Source: a virus | Taxonomy: Duplodnaviria; Caudoviricetes | Direction: 5' to 3' (one strand) | Virus record (IMG/VR): IMGVR_UViG_3300049917_000088 | Coordinates: 1-25,098 of that record | DNA length: 25,098 bases | Shown: positions 4,287-24,672 of the stretch, in pieces | How the letters are laid out: each line of letters starts with the position of its first letter | Position numbering within the stretch: the first letter of the stretch is position 1 | Notes under the pieces: generated by a model | What the model was told of the DNA's origin: nothing | What the model saw: only the letters and a program-made list of their open reading frames with translations | Database searches by the model: none | Made by a program: the position numbers and the translations under genes

Positions 4287-4330
4287 TCGCACGTTATACA
4301 ACGCGTATAATAGATGACCCCTATGCAAGG
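4287..4330 (+). promoter_or_regulatory. Repeated promoter motif copy 1 plus leader
   Basis: TCGCA-CGTTA-TACA-ACGCG-TATAAT then GACCCCTATGCAAGG (RBS). Confidence 0.8.
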
Positions 4331-4338
4331 AGAACACC

Positions 4339-4626
4339 ATGTTCGCCAAAAAGCAGCCCGCTAACCCGAAGCTCGACGAGGCCATCGACTCTGTACACAC
4401 CGATATGAACTCGATCACCAGTGATTCCGAGGAATACGCCGCGATGGCGGACCAGCTTGTCAAGCTGCTGAAGTTGAAGAATGAGATTGAATCCTCAGCT
4501 TCAGTCAGCGCCGACACGAAGGCCCTCATCGCCGCGAACCTCGCCGGCATCCTGTTGATCCTGAATTTCGAGCGTGCAGGAGTCGTGGCCTCGAAAGCTC
4601 TCGGATTCGTGCAGAAACTTCGGTAA
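4339..4626 (+). CDS. Small membrane-associated hypothetical protein
   Basis: 95 aa, RBS AAGGAG, hydrophobic C-terminal segment; sits between promoter and terminator. Confidence 0.8.
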   Translation: MFAKKQPANPKLDEAIDSVHTDMNSITSDSEEYAAMADQLVKLLKLKNEIESSASVSADTKALIAANLAGILLILNFERAGVVASKALGFVQKLR

Positions 4627-4697: not shown

Positions 4698-4722
4698 TCG
4701 CATGAATTACAAGTACTATAAT
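4698..4722 (+). promoter_or_regulatory. Repeated promoter motif copy 2
   Basis: TCGCA-TGAAT-TACA-AGTAC-TATAAT. Confidence 0.8.
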
Positions 4723-4799
4723 AGAAGAGTTCTATGCGCCAGACGCATAGGCAGTCAAGAGTATGTACAGAGTTAATTCTCGCTTGACCTTCTATTTTT
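4720..4799 (+). ncRNA. Candidate small structured RNA 1 (three-way junction)
   Basis: AATAGAAG/CTTCTATT closing stem, CTATGCG/CGCATAG hairpin, GTCAAG/CTTGAC stem, ends in T-run; own promoter, no RBS or ORF. Confidence 0.6.
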
Positions 4800-4849
4800 C
4801 TTTGCCCAAATTACGAGGCTCAACTCGGACTCCTACGAAAGGCCTTCTA

Positions 4850-5062
4850 ATGTCGATCTTCAACAGCCGTTCCTTCAACGTCAAGATGGTCAAGGACAAG
4901 GATCTTAATGGGGGTGTGGAAACAGACACTCGCAATCCCTACGAGGGTGTGCAAGTTGCAGCGGCATATGCCGAAGTTGCCAAGGACTTGATTACCCATG
5001 CCGCATTGATCATCGGTGGCGTGTGGGCCGCTTGTAAGATCGTAGAGAGGATCTGCAAGTGA
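4850..5062 (+). CDS. Small membrane protein
   Basis: ATG at 4850 after GACTCCTACGAAAGG leader; C-terminal TM (AALIIGGVWAAC). Confidence 0.7.
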   Translation: MSIFNSRSFNVKMVKDKDLNGGVETDTRNPYEGVQVAAAYAEVAKDLITHAALIIGGVWAACKIVERICK

Positions 5063-5249: not shown

Positions 5250-5292
5250 TCGCAGAAATTACAGGGGTTATAATGAAACCCCTACGAAAGGA
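5250..5292 (+). promoter_or_regulatory. Repeated promoter motif copy 3 plus leader
   Basis: TCGCA-GAAAT-TACA-GGGGT-TATAAT-GAAA-CCCCTACGAAAGGA. Confidence 0.85.
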
Positions 5293-5298
5293 AACATC

Positions 5299-5427
5299 AT
5301 GCTCTCCAAGATCAAGAACATCGACCCGACCACGAAGATTTTCATCCGCGTTCTGGCGACCCACGTCGTCATCGCGGTTGTCACCATCGTGGTCGCGAAG
5401 AAGCTCTCCGAGACCTCCGAAGCCTGA
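5299..5427 (+). CDS. 42-aa single-TM protein (not in ORF track)
   Basis: MLSKIKNIDPTTKIFIRVLATHVVIAVVTIVVAKKLSETSEA; RBS GAAAGGA; C/G-ending codons. Confidence 0.8.
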   Translation: MLSKIKNIDPTTKIFIRVLATHVVIAVVTIVVAKKLSETSEA

Positions 5428-5497: not shown

Positions 5498-5938
5498 ATG
5501 CACACGTTGATGGAAATTGTAATCATCGTCAGATTCATCGCAGTCATCGCCCTAGCGTTTTCGATCATTCTGCTGAGTTTCCTGACTACCCACTACTGTT
5601 GGGAAGTATGGAGCGCCAAGAGGCTCGAGAAGAACCCGATCAAGAAGACGCGCGCGAGGGAAAAAGCCAGACATCGCCGAGAGAAAGCTCAGCAAGAGTG
5701 GGCCGACAGTCTGATCACCTCGTTCAAACCCGAAGGCGACCCCGACAGTCCATTTGAGGGACCGGCTCTACCAGAAGCTGATATTTCGCAGGAGAGCAAA
5801 GATGACAGTCCAAGACCTCGCCACGCGAGCCCAGAAGATGATCCTGGACAATTCTCCGACGATCCTGACGGCCATCGGCTTGACTGGGACCGTGATGACG
5901 GCCTACCTGACGGGGAAGGCTTCTTTCAAGGCCGCTGA
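5498..5938 (+). CDS. Membrane-anchored hypothetical protein
   Basis: N-terminal TM; C-terminal 137 nt overlap the next gene. Confidence 0.55.
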   Translation: MHTLMEIVIIVRFIAVIALAFSIILLSFLTTHYCWEVWSAKRLEKNPIKKTRAREKARHRREKAQQEWADSLITSFKPEGDPDSPFEGPALPEADISQESKDDSPRPRHASPEDDPGQFSDDPDGHRLDWDRDDGLPDGEGFFQGR

Positions 5939-6569
5939 GGTCCTAGCCGAACAGGATCTCGGGGCTCGACTGATGAATGAGACCGTCGACACTCGCGATA
6001 AAGTTCAGGCGGTGTGGAAGCTCTATATTCCCGCAGCAGGAACTCTGGTCGCAACGATCGTCTGCCTCGTCGGGGCTAATCAGATCGGTACCCGTCGGGC
6101 CGCGGCGATGGCTGCTGCTTTCTCGCTCTCCGACAAGGCCTTCGAGGAATATCGCAAGAAGGTCGTCGAGAAGATCGGCGAAAAGAAGGAACAGGGCTTC
6201 CGAGACGAACTCGCCCAGGACAGCGTCCGGGAAGATCCTGTAGTCACTCGTGAAGTCATCATTACGGGTGGCGGTGACGTATTGTGTCGTGATCAGTTCA
6301 GCGGCCGATATTTCACCAGTGACATGGAGAGCCTCAAGAGTGCCGTCAATGACGTGAACCATGAGGTTCTCAACAACTACTACGCGTCGCTGACCGATTT
6401 CTACAACAAGATCGGTCTGCCGAGAACGAGCATCTCGGATGACGTGGGTTGGAACAGCAACAAATTGCTCGAGCTCGAGTTCTCAACCGCGGTTACCGAA
6501 GACGGTCGACCGTGTCTCACTGTCGGTTTCCGTGTGGAGCCGATTCGCGATTACTACCGCCTCAACTAG
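5802..6569 (+). CDS. DUF6353-like membrane protein, paralog A
   Basis: ATG 5802 with RBS AGGAGAG; NSPTILTAIG...KLYIPAAG...YASLTDFYNKIGL...VGW. Confidence 0.75.
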   Translation: MTVQDLATRAQKMILDNSPTILTAIGLTGTVMTAYLTGKASFKAAEVLAEQDLGARLMNETVDTRDKVQAVWKLYIPAAGTLVATIVCLVGANQIGTRRAAAMAAAFSLSDKAFEEYRKKVVEKIGEKKEQGFRDELAQDSVREDPVVTREVIITGGGDVLCRDQFSGRYFTSDMESLKSAVNDVNHEVLNNYYASLTDFYNKIGLPRTSISDDVGWNSNKLLELEFSTAVTEDGRPCLTVGFRVEPIRDYYRLN

Positions 6570-6773: not shown

Positions 6774-6937
6774 CGCCCGCATTCCGATCCTTGAAAGTGT
6801 GGTAAGACAAGAACTACAAATTTCGGCACCCGCCAGGAATCCCCACCGGGCCGGCCTCTAACGGAGAGTCGGTGACGAGATAAGGATGTCTGTTGGCGCA
6901 ATCCGGAGCCACACTTTTAAGGTTCAGAATGCGGGCG
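6774..6937 (+). ncRNA. Candidate structured RNA 2 (~165 nt, long closing stem)
   Basis: 6774-6802 pairs with 6909-6937 (29 positions, 2 mismatches, 1 G-U); internal stems AGACA/TGTCT, CACCGG/TCGGTG, CTCT/AGAG. Confidence 0.65.
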
Positions 6938-6975: not shown

Positions 6976-7554
6976 ATGCTCAAGAAGACCATCACCTACA
7001 AGGATCTCGACGGTAATCCGATCGTCGAGGACTTCTACTTCAACCTGTCCAAGGCCGAGCTCGCCGAGATGGAGCTCAGTCAGCACGGCGGGATGGAGAA
7101 GTGGCTGACCAGCATCATCGCCTCCCAGGATGGCGGGAAGATCATCGCGGCCTTCAAGGAGATCCTGCGCAAAGCCTACGGCCGGCGATCCAACGACAAC
7201 AAGAGCTTCATCAAAACCGACCAGGCTTGGGTCGAGTTCGAGAGCAGCGACGCCTACTCGGAGCTCTTCATGGACCTGGTGACCGACGCCGAGGCCGGCG
7301 TGAACTTTATCAAGGCGGTCATGCCGTCGGATCTGGTCGGCAAGGTCCAGACGGTCGAGCTGCCAACGGAGATCCCCACGCCAAACTTGGCCGCCTGGGA
7401 ATCCCCCAAGACGTTCCTGAACACCGACATCGATCTCAACGAGACGAAAACCGTCCACACGCCGAAACTCAGCCCCGCCGAGAACTACCGAACCTCCGAG
7501 CAACTTCGAAACATGACCAGCGAGCAGCTCATCGAGTGGCGCAACAATTTGTAA
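6976..7554 (+). CDS. Conserved phage hypothetical protein
   Basis: ATG 6976 after GAAAGG; MLKKTITYKDLDGNPIVEDFYFNLSKAEL. Confidence 0.8.
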   Translation: MLKKTITYKDLDGNPIVEDFYFNLSKAELAEMELSQHGGMEKWLTSIIASQDGGKIIAAFKEILRKAYGRRSNDNKSFIKTDQAWVEFESSDAYSELFMDLVTDAEAGVNFIKAVMPSDLVGKVQTVELPTEIPTPNLAAWESPKTFLNTDIDLNETKTVHTPKLSPAENYRTSEQLRNMTSEQLIEWRNNL

Positions 7555-7567
7555 GGAGGTGTAACAC

Positions 7568-7654
7568 ATGAAGGTCGTCGGTCACCTGATCCTGACCATC
7601 ATGACCGGCGGGCTTTGGCTGCTCGTACTGGTCATCAAGAAGCTCGTGGGCTAA
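7568..7654 (+). CDS. 28-aa hydrophobic peptide (not in ORF track)
   Basis: Strong RBS AAGGAGG; MKVVGHLILTIMTGGLWLLVLVIKKLVG. Confidence 0.75.
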   Translation: MKVVGHLILTIMTGGLWLLVLVIKKLVG

Positions 7655-7659
7655 TCCGC

Positions 7660-7778
7660 GTGAGAGTTTAGGGGAGTCAGCAGAGGGTTTGTTCGTAGGG
7701 GTCCGAACCCTATTCCGGATGCTTTTGACTTATAAACGACAGCCAGGTCCCCGTAGAAAATGTGCCCCTTACTCTCAC
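7660..7778 (+). ncRNA. Candidate structured RNA 3 with anti-leader loop
   Basis: GTGAGAGT/ACTCTCAC plus AGGGG/CCCCT closing stem; AGTCA/TGACT; AGGGTTTG/CGAACCCT stem with loop TTCGTAGGGGTC. Confidence 0.7.
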
Positions 7779-7804
7779 AAAATTCAATTATGAAAAGGAA
7801 TGTC

Positions 7805-7987
7805 ATGAGAATTTACTTCGATGCCGTTCTGGACATCACACTCAAGCCCGTCTTCAACGGAACTTCGGAAGAGACGCAAAAGTTCGTTGAGGATTGCAAG
7901 GATGATCTGATGTTCGAACACTACATGGTCTGCATCGGTCGAACCCTCGAACTCGTCTCGTTCACGGAATACCTGGCTCGCAAGTAA
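7805..7987 (+). CDS. Hypothetical protein (60 aa)
   Basis: ATG 7805 after AAAGGAA; last codons overlap promoter copy 4. Confidence 0.65.
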   Translation: MRIYFDAVLDITLKPVFNGTSEETQKFVEDCKDDLMFEHYMVCIGRTLELVSFTEYLARK

Positions 7988-8020
7988 TACAGGGCCTATA
8001 ATGAGAACCCCTACGAAAGG
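7978..8020 (+). promoter_or_regulatory. Repeated promoter motif copy 4 plus leader
   Basis: TCGCA-AGTAA-TACA-GGGCC-TATAAT-GAGAA-CCCCTACGAAAGG. Confidence 0.85.
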
Positions 8021-8026
8021 ACCCTG

Positions 8027-8293
8027 ATGAAAGACAAACTCGAAATCACCAAGGTCGTTGTTCACAACATGACCGGCTACGCCATAGGCGCAGCAACAGG
8101 CCAGTTCTTCCGCACTTTCCGCCGTCACAGTGACAACAAGACCGTCGAGCTCCTCATCGACGTGTCAACCCTGATCACCGTGTTCGCGGTCAGTGCGCTA
8201 GCACACGAGCCCGTTCGCGACTACACCGACGCCCAGATCGACAAGGCAGCGGCCTGGTGGAAAGAGAACGTCACACCCAAGCTCCAGAAATAG
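8027..8293 (+). CDS. Small membrane-associated protein
   Basis: 88 aa, two moderately hydrophobic segments, inside a promoter-terminator cassette. Confidence 0.8.
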   Translation: MKDKLEITKVVVHNMTGYAIGAATGQFFRTFRRHSDNKTVELLIDVSTLITVFAVSALAHEPVRDYTDAQIDKAAAWWKENVTPKLQK

Positions 8294-9161: not shown

Positions 9162-10064
9162 ATGAACTTGAAGTCACTCAAGAACGTGGTGACCAGCAAG
9201 GCCGGTCGCTCGGTTCTGAAAATGCAGAAGCACTCCCCCGTCATCCTCTTCACCGCCGGTGTGGTGGGTGTGGTGGGAACGGTCGTTCTGGCCTGCCAGG
9301 CAACCCTCAAGATGGACGAGGCCCTGGACGAGATCACCAAGCAGAAGACCGCCGCCAAGGAACTGCACGACCGCAACATGGACCAGTACAGCGACGAGGA
9401 CTTCAAGCAGGACATGATGCTCCTGTACGTCCGGAGCGCCGTCAAGATCGTCAAGTTGTACGCGCCGGCCATCGTCGTGGGTGTTGCATCGATCGCGGCC
9501 CTGACCGGAGCCCACGTGGTGCTGAGTCGACGCAACATCGCCGTCACCGCGGCCTACGCGGCCCTCGAGAAGGGCTACCAGGAGTACCGCCGTCGGGTGG
9601 TCGACGACCTGGGCGAGGACAAGGACCGGGAATACCGATATGGGCTGGTGGATCACGAGGTCCACGAGAAGAAGGCCGACGGCAGTACCGAGATCACCAA
9701 GATCAAGGGACTGAACAACAAGGACATCTCGATCTACGCCCGGTTCTTCGACGAGACCTGCAAGGACTGGAACCGGAACGCCGGCTACAACTCGATGTTC
9801 ATCCAGTGCCAGCAGAACTACGCCAACGATCTGCTGCGCGCGCGAGGACACGTCTTCCTCAACGAGGTCTACGACATGCTCGGAATGCCCCGCTCCAAGG
9901 AGGGTGCCGTGGTCGGCTGGGTGGTCAACGACCGGGGTGACAACTACGTGGACTTCGGCGTCTTCAGTGGCGACACGTTCATGGGCCAGGAGTTCGTCAA
10001 CGGCAACGAGATGGCCGTCCTGCTGGACTTCAACGTCGATGGCATCATCTACGACAAAATCTAA
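9162..10064 (+). CDS. DUF6353-like membrane protein, paralog B
   Basis: HSPVILFTAGVVG...KLYAPAIVVG...HVFLNEVYDMLG...VGW...LDFNVDG; very strong C/G third-position bias. Confidence 0.8.
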   Translation: MNLKSLKNVVTSKAGRSVLKMQKHSPVILFTAGVVGVVGTVVLACQATLKMDEALDEITKQKTAAKELHDRNMDQYSDEDFKQDMMLLYVRSAVKIVKLYAPAIVVGVASIAALTGAHVVLSRRNIAVTAAYAALEKGYQEYRRRVVDDLGEDKDREYRYGLVDHEVHEKKADGSTEITKIKGLNNKDISIYARFFDETCKDWNRNAGYNSMFIQCQQNYANDLLRARGHVFLNEVYDMLGMPRSKEGAVVGWVVNDRGDNYVDFGVFSGDTFMGQEFVNGNEMAVLLDFNVDGIIYDKI

Positions 10065-21156: not shown

Positions 21157-21186
21157 CAGCGTGTAAAACATGCGATATAATAGAAG
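21157..21186 (+). promoter_or_regulatory. Variant copy of the repeated promoter
   Basis: CAGCG-TGTAA-AACA-TGCGA-TATAATAGAAG; same spacing, last 11 nt identical to copy 2. Confidence 0.65.
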
Positions 21187-21549: not shown

Positions 21550-22051
21550 CTACCACTGGGTAAACTACGACGAAGACAAACTAGACCGCGTCTTCTTCAC
21601 CAATGAAGCAGCGCGAAGAGGTACCGAGATTCATGCCTTTGCTCATGAGGCGATTCGTCTGGGCATCAAGCTACCCGTTAGCAGGAAGACACTGAACCTC
21701 TACGTCAATGATGCGATTGGGTATCGCATGACGCCAGAGCAGACGTTGTTCTACTCCCCTAACTGTTTCGGGTGTGCTGATGCTCTTGGTTTCCGTCGAG
21801 ACACCCTACGAATTCACGACCTCAAGACAGGGGTCACGCCGGCAGGAATGACGCAGCTGAAAATCTATGCTGCTCTCTTCTGTCTCGAGTACAGATTCAA
21901 ACCAAGTGAGATCAAGATGGAACTTCGTATGTATCAGAACGATGACATCGAAGTTCTTGTCCCTGACCCTATGGACATAGTCTTGATCATGGACAAGATA
22001 GTCACCTTCGACAAGCGGATTGCTGAGCTAAGATTGGAGGGACCGTTGTGA
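21491..22051 (+). CDS. PD-(D/E)XK exonuclease (Cas4/RecB-like)
   Basis: LSPSS, GTEIH, GCADAL, IHDLKTG, QLKIYA. Confidence 0.8.
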   Translation: MNFNKHSNLAGLHAFLSPSSYHWVNYDEDKLDRVFFTNEAARRGTEIHAFAHEAIRLGIKLPVSRKTLNLYVNDAIGYRMTPEQTLFYSPNCFGCADALGFRRDTLRIHDLKTGVTPAGMTQLKIYAALFCLEYRFKPSEIKMELRMYQNDDIEVLVPDPMDIVLIMDKIVTFDKRIAELRLEGPL

Positions 22052-24672
22052 TCATTCCTGAACAGGACTATCTCGCACACTACGGTATTCTCCGTAAGTC
22101 GGGTCGATACCCTTGGGGTTCTGGCGGTCCTGAGATCGCGAGCAACAAGTCCTTCCTCGAGATGGTGGATAGTCTTCGAGCTAAGGGTATGAGTGAGACC
22201 GAGGTCGCGTCCGGCTTGGGTATCACGACGACTCAGCTTCGGGCAGCGAAGTCCATCGCAAAGGCTGAAGAGAAGCAAGCCCAGATCGGAATGGCTCAGA
22301 GACTCAAGGACCGAGGCTATTCCAACGTAGCTATCGGTGCACGCATGAATATCCCTGAGTCCTCGGTCAGAGCTCTTCTTGCTCCCGGTCAGAAGGATCG
22401 TGCCGACGTTCTTGAGACTACGGCCAACATGCTCAAGGATCAGGTAAACAAGAAGGGCTATGTCGACGTCGGTAGCGGCGTTGAACATCATCTCGGCATC
22501 AGTCAGACGAAACTTAGCACTGCGGTGGCGAGGTTGAAAGAAGAAGGCTATACGGTCCACTACGTGAAGGTTGAGCAGCTGGGTACGGGCCAGCAGACCA
22601 CCATCAAGGTATTGGCCAAGCCGGACGTTCCTTACTCCGAGGTGTACAAGAATCGTGCAGACATCAAACAAGTCACGGATCATTCAGAAGATGGTGGCCG
22701 CAGCTATCTTGGGGTTAAGCCCCCCACTTCTGTATCTTCTCGGCGTGTGTCTGTACGCTACGCCGAACAAGGTGGCGCCGATGCTGATGGTGTCATCTAT
22801 GTACGTCCTGGTGTGGACGACCTATCTCTTGGGAAGTCTCGCTACGCGCAGGTAAGAATCGCGGTGGACGGATCGCACTACCTCAAGGGTATGGCGATGT
22901 ACAAGGATGATCTGCCGGCCGGCACAGATCTCGTGTTCAACACGAACAAGAAGAGCACGGGTAACAAGCTCGACGCCATGAAAGAGTTGAAGAAAGACGG
23001 AGCCACAGGAAAGGTCGATCTCGACAATCCTTTCGGTGCAACCATTCGTCGACAGCATGGCGTCATGAACATCGTGAACGAAGAGGGTGACTGGGAGACT
23101 TGGTCTCGTAGTTTGTCTTCTCAGATGCTGTCGAAACAGAATCACAAGCTTGCAGAGACACAGCTCAACATGACGTATGAGCGCAAGCGGCAAGATCTCG
23201 ACGACATCAAGAAGCTGAACAACCCTCAGGTGAAGAAGAAACTCCTCGAGTCTTACGCTGATGATGTGGATTCGTCGGCAGTTCACCTGAAGGCTGCTGC
23301 TCTCCCGCGTCAAGGATCACACGTCATCCTTCCCGTTAACTCGATGAAGGAGAACGAGATCTATGCGCCTAACTACCGTAATGGTGAACGGGTCGCGTTG
23401 GTTCGCTACCCGCACGGTGGAATCTTCGAGATCCCCGAACTCACAGTCAACAACCACGCGCCGGGAGCAAAGAAACTTCTGGGTAATGCTAAGGATGCTG
23501 TCGGCATTCACAGCAAGGTTGCCGGCAGATTGTCCGGCGCTGACTTCGACGGAGACACAGTCCTTGTCATCCCGAACAACAACAAGACTGTAAAGAGTTC
23601 GCCTGCTCTTTCCGGTCTAAAAGGATTCGATCCTCAGTCTGCGTATCCAGCGTATCCTGGGATGCCGAAGATGAGTGCACGCACCAAGCAGGTTCAGATG
23701 GGCGTTGTGTCCAACCTCATCACGGACATGACCATTCGTGGAGCTAACCAATCCGAGCTTGCTCGAGCAGTTCGGCACTCCATGGTGGTCATCGATGCGG
23801 AGAAGCACAACCTGAACTACAAGCAATCGGCGATCGACAACGGAATCGGTCAGCTGAAAGCTAAGTATCAGGGCAGCTCTAAGGCTGGTGCATCAACTCT
23901 GATCTCTAGAGCTGGTGCTGAAGTACGAGTTGCGGAGAGGAAGCAGGGTTACCGTATAGATCCGGCAACGGGCAGAAAGATCTATACAAAGACTGGTGCA
24001 TCCTATGTGGATGCTCGAGGTAAGGTGATTGTTAAGACTACTAGATCTAAGGGTCTGGCTGAAACTGACAACGCTAACACCTTGTCTTCAGGTACACCTA
24101 TCGAGAAGGCTTATGCCACCCACTCGAACAGACTGAAGGCTCTTGGTAACTCGGCTCGAAGAGAAGCAGCCAGCACAAAAGGTATTCCTTATTCGCCCTC
24201 AGCAAAGGCGGCGTACCATAAGGAAGTTGCTAATCTCGATCACAAGCTGAACCTCGCCCTTCGAAACGCCCCCCTCGAAAGACAAGCCCAGGTCATAGCA
24301 AACGCCATAGTCTCCCAGAAGAGGCAGGCAAACCCGGATCTTGAACCTTCTGAAATTAAGAAGCTGAAATCGCAGGCGCTAACAGAGGCCCGTATCAGGA
24401 CCGGTGCAAAGAAACACCGCATAGAACTAACTGATGCTGAATGGAAGGCTATCCAAGCAGGCGCCATCAGTAGCAGTAAGCTGAACAAGATCCTAAGTAA
24501 TGCTGATCTTGATCAGATCAAGAAGCTGGCCACACCGAAGTCAGCCAAGACCATGACCAGTGCCAAGAAGAACAGAGCCATGGCTATGCTTGCGGCAGGC
24601 TATACGCAGGCTGAGGTTGCTGATGCACTAGGTGTGTCCTTGACTACCCTCAAGGAGACTATCAATGAGTGA
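22048..24672 (+). CDS. Putative single-subunit two-barrel RNA polymerase (YonO / eukaryotic RdRP-like) with multiple HTH domains
   Basis: Ordered motifs ADGVI, QVRI...KGM, VRYPH, LSGADFDGD (aa 499-503 = DFDGD), MGVVSN, HSMVVIDAEK; HTH-like segments at about aa 46-66, 89-110, 145-168 and 851-872. Confidence 0.8.
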   Translation: MIIPEQDYLAHYGILRKSGRYPWGSGGPEIASNKSFLEMVDSLRAKGMSETEVASGLGITTTQLRAAKSIAKAEEKQAQIGMAQRLKDRGYSNVAIGARMNIPESSVRALLAPGQKDRADVLETTANMLKDQVNKKGYVDVGSGVEHHLGISQTKLSTAVARLKEEGYTVHYVKVEQLGTGQQTTIKVLAKPDVPYSEVYKNRADIKQVTDHSEDGGRSYLGVKPPTSVSSRRVSVRYAEQGGADADGVIYVRPGVDDLSLGKSRYAQVRIAVDGSHYLKGMAMYKDDLPAGTDLVFNTNKKSTGNKLDAMKELKKDGATGKVDLDNPFGATIRRQHGVMNIVNEEGDWETWSRSLSSQMLSKQNHKLAETQLNMTYERKRQDLDDIKKLNNPQVKKKLLESYADDVDSSAVHLKAAALPRQGSHVILPVNSMKENEIYAPNYRNGERVALVRYPHGGIFEIPELTVNNHAPGAKKLLGNAKDAVGIHSKVAGRLSGADFDGDTVLVIPNNNKTVKSSPALSGLKGFDPQSAYPAYPGMPKMSARTKQVQMGVVSNLITDMTIRGANQSELARAVRHSMVVIDAEKHNLNYKQSAIDNGIGQLKAKYQGSSKAGASTLISRAGAEVRVAERKQGYRIDPATGRKIYTKTGASYVDARGKVIVKTTRSKGLAETDNANTLSSGTPIEKAYATHSNRLKALGNSARREAASTKGIPYSPSAKAAYHKEVANLDHKLNLALRNAPLERQAQVIANAIVSQKRQANPDLEPSEIKKLKSQALTEARIRTGAKKHRIELTDAEWKAIQAGAISSSKLNKILSNADLDQIKKLATPKSAKTMTSAKKNRAMAMLAAGYTQAEVADALGVSLTTLKETINE

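Follow-up and report, generated by a model that had tools for sequence, protein, structure and literature searches.

The window analysed here, a virus record of 25,098 bases from a cluster-BI-like actinophage that encodes a YonO-type RNA polymerase, carries a conserved structured RNA whose guide arm is antisense to a tag, GAGACCCCUAC, found behind the repeated promoter of small-gene cassettes. Comparison of related phages indicates that changes in the tag are matched by changes in the guide in several lineages. The RNA family is real and apparently undescribed, and would exert antisense control in trans. A first-pass annotation, made from the letters of this DNA, had proposed that one RNA addresses a whole regulon via a common tag, and this proposal held up: the RNA is structured, lies on the + strand, and has an arm that tracks tag changes in relatives.

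Judged by its genes, the window follows the order of the BI/DJ/CC/AU/AM/AW/EL supercluster (tail genes, holin, small cassettes, two DUF6353 genes, primase-polymerase, helicase, HNH, exonuclease and polymerase), with a DxDGD polymerase bearing terminal HTHs, a primase-polymerase, a helicase-HNH-exonuclease block and central small membrane genes. The supercluster and its putative YonO-like RNA polymerase were described in 10.1101/842583, and the membrane-gene cluster is mentioned in the available parts of PMC13313380 and PMC7302621. Relatives have been described as lytic, without repressor or integrase, and repeats upstream of ATGs have been given as a cluster DJ trait suggesting regulation, without motif anatomy, start site or antisense RNA (PMC9753669); none of these three was found in the accessible portion of 10.1101/842583. 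The polymerase of the window shares 68% identity with gp54 of RosaAsantewaa, a Streptomyces phage. Its matches comprise 250 phage records, chiefly from phages of Arthrobacter, Gordonia and Streptomyces, and a search for a matching solved structure gave no match. We infer that this protein is the reader of the cassette promoters; the available text of PMC5467207 left the promoter of the YonO-like polymerase open.

Features of the window bearing on the structured RNA, its targets and the phage polymerase
Feature	Position	Strand	Remarks
Cassette promoter (4287-4311) and tag (4316-4327)	4287-4327	+	before 95-aa gene 4339-4626
Tagless promoter copy (4698-4722) and small non-coding unit	4698-4800	+	closing stem starts where TATAAT ends; U-tract at the end of the unit
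Promoter-less tag, longest guide match	4825-4842	+	before 70-aa gene 4850-5062
Cassette promoter (5250-5274) and tag (5277-5288)	5250-5288	+	before 42-aa membrane-protein gene 5299-5427
Tail assembly chaperone gene (Pfam Phage_TAC_17)	6976-7554	+	RNA in its 3' region
28-codon ORF	7568-7654		between chaperone gene and RNA
Conserved structured non-coding RNA, three-way junction	7660-7778	+	alignment, pair counts, covariance model
Variable outer stem	7660-7667/7771-7778	+	
P1	7672-7674/7765-7767	+	GGG/CCC
P2	7675-7682/7720-7730	+	
Guide arm	7684-7711	+	P3 stem AGGGTTTG (7684-7691)/CGAACCCT (7704-7711); 12-nt loop TTCGTAGGGGTC (7692-7703) = antisense segment
One-sided bulge AUUCCGGA	7712-7719	+	CCGG invariant
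Conserved core UAAACGACAGCC ... AAUGUGCCC	7733-7767	+	P4, bulged A; around variable hairpin
Cassette promoter (7978-8002) and tag (8006-8017)	7978-8017	+	before 88-aa gene 8027-8293
Degenerate tagless promoter copy	21158-21181	+	before nuclease-exonuclease-RNA polymerase operon; below profile threshold
Single-chain two-barrel RNA polymerase	22048-24672	+	DFDGD motif, HTH domains; 874 aa

The fold rests on an alignment of 50 copies, in which 95.4% of the 1091 cells of the named structure are paired, with 134 double-sided changes. None of 500 shuffles reached this pairing score, controls with the structure slid along the alignment gave 32-48%, and RNAalifold recovers P2 and P3 unaided; P1 and P4, which barely vary among the copies, are plausible pairings. 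The + strand is fixed by the excess of G-U pairs over A-C (49 vs 11). With covariance model R1, in which the window is included, positions 7656-7782 score 84.2 bits. Rfam gave no matches in the window at E up to 1, and none on the RNA across 18 homologous loci with a cutoff of E 5. The apical loop of 12 nt claimed by the first-pass annotation stands on the comparative fold and on covariation of the guide hairpin in relatives; it is missing from the minimum-energy fold of the isolated window RNA (-40.7 kcal/mol), in which GUAGGG pairs with the RNA's own CCCUAU. The comparative fold has -36.2 kcal/mol, 4.5 above that minimum, so that the guide of the window RNA alone is predicted to be hidden. 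For homologs, predictions mostly place the central GG of the seed in a paired mini-hairpin, its two letters having unpaired probabilities of 0.22 and 0.34 and the flanks 0.5-0.75.

All 50 aligned rows share the CCGG of the bulge, for which the search pattern had selected, and a tertiary pairing of 3 bp between the bulge and the CCG that follows UAAACGACAG is possible; these putative pairs never vary across the alignment, and one is broken in the window itself. The three-way junction is compact, its unpaired bases hardly vary and a tertiary contact is possible, features that would suit a new ribozyme that excises itself from the chaperone transcript, or that cuts or modifies a message held by the guide, as would the finding that none of 15 central genes tested encodes a protein partner restricted to RNA-bearing phages. 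We nevertheless consider this very unlikely: the RNA matches none of the Rfam ribozyme models, self-cleaving ones included, the invariance is in part built in by the search pattern, and a protein-binding surface would explain it equally well.

A distant DNA search found positions 7684-7768 in Gordonia DJ and Streptomyces BI2 phages. The core pattern was met in 50 stretches of viral contigs and 111 of metagenome contigs; a looser pattern, most of whose 119 stretches in viral contigs were chance, was dropped for this tighter one. Among 100 metagenome loci scored with the model, 73 had E below 1e-9; the pattern had served to pick these loci, some of which are shared with the viral set. Thirty-eight of 170 core loci failed the structure filter (some of them real copies with bulged stems), and removal of copies more than 85% alike left 73 loci. 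Cellular genomes yielded 27 pattern matches, all weak by the model except one, which lies on a 50.6-kb contig carrying the same cassettes, and no cellular version was found. Nor was the RNA found in the distant relatives Lactococcus P162, Faecalibacterium oengus, L010, L306 and L307. The phages with this RNA form a widespread group in soil and water.

Its genomic position is also constant. In 40 of 40 loci the RNA lies no more than 300 nt from the stop of the tail-chaperone gene (no more than 120 nt in 34). The distance to the nearest upstream cassette promoter is 955 nt or more, 36/40 loci having a terminator-like site in the interval, and a cassette promoter follows within 110 nt downstream in 23/40. 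As a promoter of the RNA's own, ATATT was a weak candidate (8/39 vs 846/9302 background bins). A frameshift or read-through signal for the chaperone was rejected, as no downstream fusion frame was seen and the chaperone gene of oengus has no model match behind it. The chaperone gene itself sits amid the cassettes, distant from the tape-measure gene, and its oengus homolog lies inside the tail operon; it may be the tail chaperone reported as missing or unidentified in cluster DJ in the available part of PMC12859696. Before it, an intergenic stretch of 165 nt (6774-6937) forms a long hairpin with 29-nt arms that are 90% complementary (-79 kcal/mol), for which no match was seen among the loci fetched. 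The RNA region stands between two DUF6353 paralogs (5802-6569 and 9162-10064), which every relative tested also has.

The cassette promoter reads TCGCA-N6-AC-N6-TATAAT, followed by GAGACCCCTAC, and over 50 loci its profile finds 300 sites on the strand of the RNA and 1 on the opposite strand; a relative of 31% GC has kept it, and Lactococcus phage P162 has kept part of it. In the window, the reverse complement of the guide loop matches at 5277 and 8006 (11/12), at 4828 (12/12, one G-U) and at 4316 (one G-U, one mismatch), as first read, and the loop site is no inverted promoter, the minus strand upstream of 7703 being without TATAAT. Five such matches occur at up to 2 mismatches, shuffled sequences giving 2.03 ± 1.34 with 4 in 100 reaching 5, so that the bare count is borderline and position is the stronger sign. 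A duplex scan of both strands put 5274, 8003 and 4825 as the three best non-self sites, the 4825 site forming a duplex of -27.9 kcal/mol with 7687-7706, and 4311 sixth, after two coding-region sites (21798 and 12466).

Other parts of the first-pass description needed narrowing. The tag does abut the ribosome-binding site here, yet its position follows the promoter: 155 of 193 leaders have ACCC at base 4 behind TATAAT, the entropy of tag position is 1.2 bits relative to TATAAT vs 3.3 bits to the start codon, and 128 of 169 same-strand tag 8-mers are at promoters. A tag anchored to the ribosome-binding site was rejected, since promoter-less tags stand before such sites in 5/41 cases, vs a background of 12.2%, and spacing is fixed to TATAAT. 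The targets at 4316, 5277 and 8006 do lie behind the repeated promoter or its decayed copy; that at 4828 has no promoter recognisable by the profile. All four downstream genes encode hydrophobic stretches of 19 residues, with Kyte-Doolittle maxima of 1.53, 1.80, 2.55 and 1.97, of which the first is marginal.

The degenerate tagless copy before the polymerase operon, seen in the window and at L002 38771, suggests that this operon may be autoregulated. In P162 (L191 8027-25425) a related promoter, TTTTACATACCCTATAAT, comes with its own repeated leader in at least 6 copies, of which no antisense copy was found in 40.6 kb. The cassette terminator hairpins of L142, L158 and L189 contain a tag-like arm, ACCCCTAC, paired to GGGGT. 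Tagless promoters with stem-closed non-coding units, like the one in the window, were also seen at L005 3965-4070, L007 3622-3725, L155, L188 5579-5910 and L191 9253, and several such units in Gordonia DJ phages are tRNA-like without an anticodon loop.

These non-coding units help to place the transcript start. They end in a U-tract, and in 15 of 48 the closing stem begins at the last T of TATAAT or at the next base, where shuffled tails give 0.8 on average and at most 5 in 1000 shuffles; closing-stem pairs number 134 with own tails vs 70 with swapped tails. Because a selected stem needs both strands in the RNA, the start would lie at the end of TATAAT. Cassette transcripts would thus begin within or just after TATAAT, with the tag as approximately nucleotides 1-13 of the message. 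The closing stems, and an upstream box spaced at 13 nt, make a sigma-A register, with the start 7 nt after TATAAT, less likely, and ARAGORN, run on 60 loci for bounding the start by tRNA 5' ends, found 1 tRNA. There are parallels in the available texts: the phiKZ polymerase starts inside its TAT motif (TATG; PMC4666361), and in P23-45 a phage single-chain polymerase reads repeated AT-rich promoters (PMC10770324). In 85 of 171 duplexes the guide helix starts directly behind TATAAT, covering what would be the first bases of the message; it fades after base 9-11 (coverage 0.29 at base 11 and 0.09 at base 12), so that it usually stops short of the Shine-Dalgarno sequence (SD); extension past the start is at about chance level, and the mean contiguous match of guide and tag is 8 nt. 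A guide match of at least 7 nt is found for 76% of 218 coding cassettes vs 22% of 41 non-coding ones.

That loop and leader covary in relatives, as the idea of a common address predicts, is borne out by permutation. For 39 loci (of 171) with at least 3 promoters and less than 80% core identity, the window being excluded as redundant, guides scored 314.5 against their own leaders vs 284.5 ± 4.8 when permuted; none of 20000 permutations was as high, and 32 of the 39 loci were positive. A table of canonical leader by canonical guide, which includes the window and is uncorrected for kinship, reads 25/6/1/8 (p=0.0003). The tree-corrected test, underpowered with 2 independent pairs on well-supported branches, was not significant. 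Matched changes take several forms: an added A in L139 (GAGAACCC with GGGUUCUC; also L179 and L202), loss of GA in L161 and L213 (GACCCC with GGGGUAC), a longer exact match in L174 (AGACCCCUUCAC with GUGAAGGGGUCU), a shortened C run in L168 (GAGACCCA with UGGGUCUC) and a substitution, in one leader only, in L296 (GACAUCCC with GGGAUGUC). They fall on separate branches for the four present in the tree, and GAGACCCC is another natural guide or tag variant. The window is itself a variant, its leaders lacking GAGAC and its guide UCUC. Six loci have canonical leaders but shortened guides, and one (L175) has the reverse.

Loss of the RNA goes with loss of the tag in one clade. The RNA is absent from the whole genomes of Linda, Damascus and Gordon at E below 0.28, and Mudcat has only a decayed copy; in these four Arthrobacter or Microbacterium phages, which form a single clade and keep the promoter, the tag is present at 5 of 32 promoter sites vs 173 of 259 in RNA-bearing loci. 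Tags without a detectable RNA were met at 6 of 7 promoters in L009, a contig that is 63% complete, and at 4 of 5 in the partial genome L192. At the place of the RNA in its relatives, the Microbacterium phage Damascus (L186 8670-9170) has a non-coding stretch of 560 nt with repeated GTTATT(T/C)GGG. The core has been kept with the guide arm lost or shortened in L187 (8594-8701), L147, L165 and L190 (8640-8738), hinting at a guide-independent role of the core; the guide-less RNA of L147 accompanies tags in 3 of 5 promoters and that of L165 decayed tags.

A reading without pairing in trans, in which the loop would be a template-strand mimic (a 6S-like decoy or template for the phage polymerase) or the relic of an inverted leader, tracking the tag through a shared protein preference, is highly improbable on this evidence. 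The loop does equal the template strand of the first transcribed bases, and predicted folds often hide the seed. Against it are the tagless promoters of the same class in the same genomes, matched changes that differ between lineages, and the fold: 6S RNA is a long rod with a central bubble, whereas the consensus fold here is branched, neither a 6S-like rod nor an Rfam 6S match being present. YonO, moreover, strongly prefers DNA templates (PMC5467207, available part).

Some kind of pairing in trans, close to the start site or directly at it, is probable. As to its effect, we tentatively put forward, at a little under even confidence, that a 3'-UTR-derived RNA silences the cassette regulon by pairing with message 5' ends, with a predicted late shut-off. 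The RNA would be made as the 3' end of the chaperone transcript, which belongs to morphogenesis, and hence later than the cassettes; its guide would pair in trans with what are taken to be the 5' ends of the messages from the small-gene cassettes, and a helix of 8-11 bp with a folded RNA of 120 nt, 10-20 nt before the start codon, would block ribosome loading and/or recruit a nuclease. The conserved core might serve as docking site for a protein partner or as catalytic centre, and the cassette genes would be shut off together later in infection. Three points favour repression: the RNA lacks a cassette promoter and accompanies a morphogenesis gene; neither the non-coding units nor the polymerase operon bear the tag; and in 10 of 38 guides an anti-SD-like CCUU or UCCU 5' of the seed extends in the direction of the SD, although these letters can equally close the guide's own mini-hairpin. 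A hairpin in cis between tag and SD was weak as a switch (mean -1.6 kcal/mol).

The same pairing could have the opposite sign, the RNA keeping nucleases off the single-stranded 5' ends of the cassette messages, or recruiting ribosomes to them, and the non-coding cassettes being exempt since their own closing stems cover the 5' end. The helix would indeed cover the 5' end while the SD mostly stays unpaired by it, blocking the tag slightly raises predicted SD accessibility (0.46 to 0.56 over 163 leaders), and there is a precedent in FasX of Streptococcus pyogenes, the best-known case of a helix this size at a 5' end, whose 7-nt helix 30 nt upstream of the AUG stabilises ska mRNA (PMC3328962, available part). 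We regard protection as unlikely, for it would need one RNA per message from a single RNA that lacks a cassette promoter and stands behind a morphogenesis gene, and the anti-SD-like extensions count against it.

Alternatively, an RNA bound to the polymerase by its conserved core might act at initiation, pairing with nascent 5' RNA or with non-template DNA, and so block or license tagged promoters. Until the polymerase escapes the promoter, the first 9-11 bases of the non-template strand are exposed, and the length of the guide helix fits such an initially transcribed bubble; the register of the tag is set by the promoter and not by translation signals, its 8-mers lie mostly at promoters, and the core outlives guide loss (L147, L165, L190). 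Yet polymerase and promoter are kept in the RNA-less phages, so that the RNA is not needed for initiation, the 4828 site of the window and a few others have no promoter, and G-U-type matches and anti-SD extensions suit RNA-RNA pairing, which leaves this version unlikely. A more general form, in which the core docks on the single-chain polymerase (or is catalytic) and a guide of 8-11 nt picks promoters or nascent transcripts at the start site, seems to us rather unlikely; if true, such a reprogrammable guide module would let RNA switch a whole regulon on or off in nature with no part played by CRISPR or transposon proteins.

The c4 RNA, processed from its precursor by RNase P, controls an antirepressor in temperate phage, and we count it, together with the CI RNA of P4, among the closest known systems. 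Like c4 of P1 and P7, the present RNA is a short, structured, phage-encoded RNA that would act in trans through short exposed segments antisense to a phage leader, with guide and target covarying between phages (here by sequence comparison). It differs in having no Rfam C4-type match, a different fold and a home in lytic phages, and in addressing 3-12 separate monocistronic targets that share a promoter-fixed tag. In the accessible part of a review of phage small RNAs (PMC12197685), c4 is listed as a trans-acting RNA of 77 nt with ant mRNA as target, and no comparable regulon RNA was found. With FasX the present RNA would share a helix of less than 10 bp near the message 5' end and well upstream of the AUG (PMC3328962, available part); FasX is bacterial and has no Rfam likeness to it, and the target here is a repeated tag at phage promoters.

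The first-pass annotation had likened the RNA to a type I antitoxin acting on several targets, and this likeness fails. Antisense RNAs of type I toxin-antitoxin systems form a long duplex with one cognate toxin message and are encoded opposite or beside it. The targets here do encode small hydrophobic proteins, as computed hydrophobicity indicates, but one RNA faces many unlinked genes through a match of 8-11 nt (8 on average) and is encoded neither opposite nor beside a toxin.

No description of this RNA was found in the literature searched, a coverage that leaves out most subscription journals. Its core motif is absent from four supplement files of a survey of viral structured RNAs (PMC10690425), and the fold may be one of the unnamed candidates in that survey's alignments, which lay outside the search. 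There is a fair chance that the family is something stranger than trans-acting antisense control, and if its core proves catalytic or polymerase-bound it would be a new class of RNA.

For the phages, the finding offers a testable regulatory mechanism for repeats that annotators noticed but left unexplained, in a group of which about 250 genomes have been sequenced and many phages are in culture. For a YonO-like polymerase, it supplies a promoter together with a probable start site. Should the guide be reprogrammable, it would provide a small regulator for Streptomyces, Gordonia and Rhodococcus. A lytic phage that marks the first bases of a dozen transcripts with one address, apparently read by one structured RNA, has no counterpart in the literature searched.
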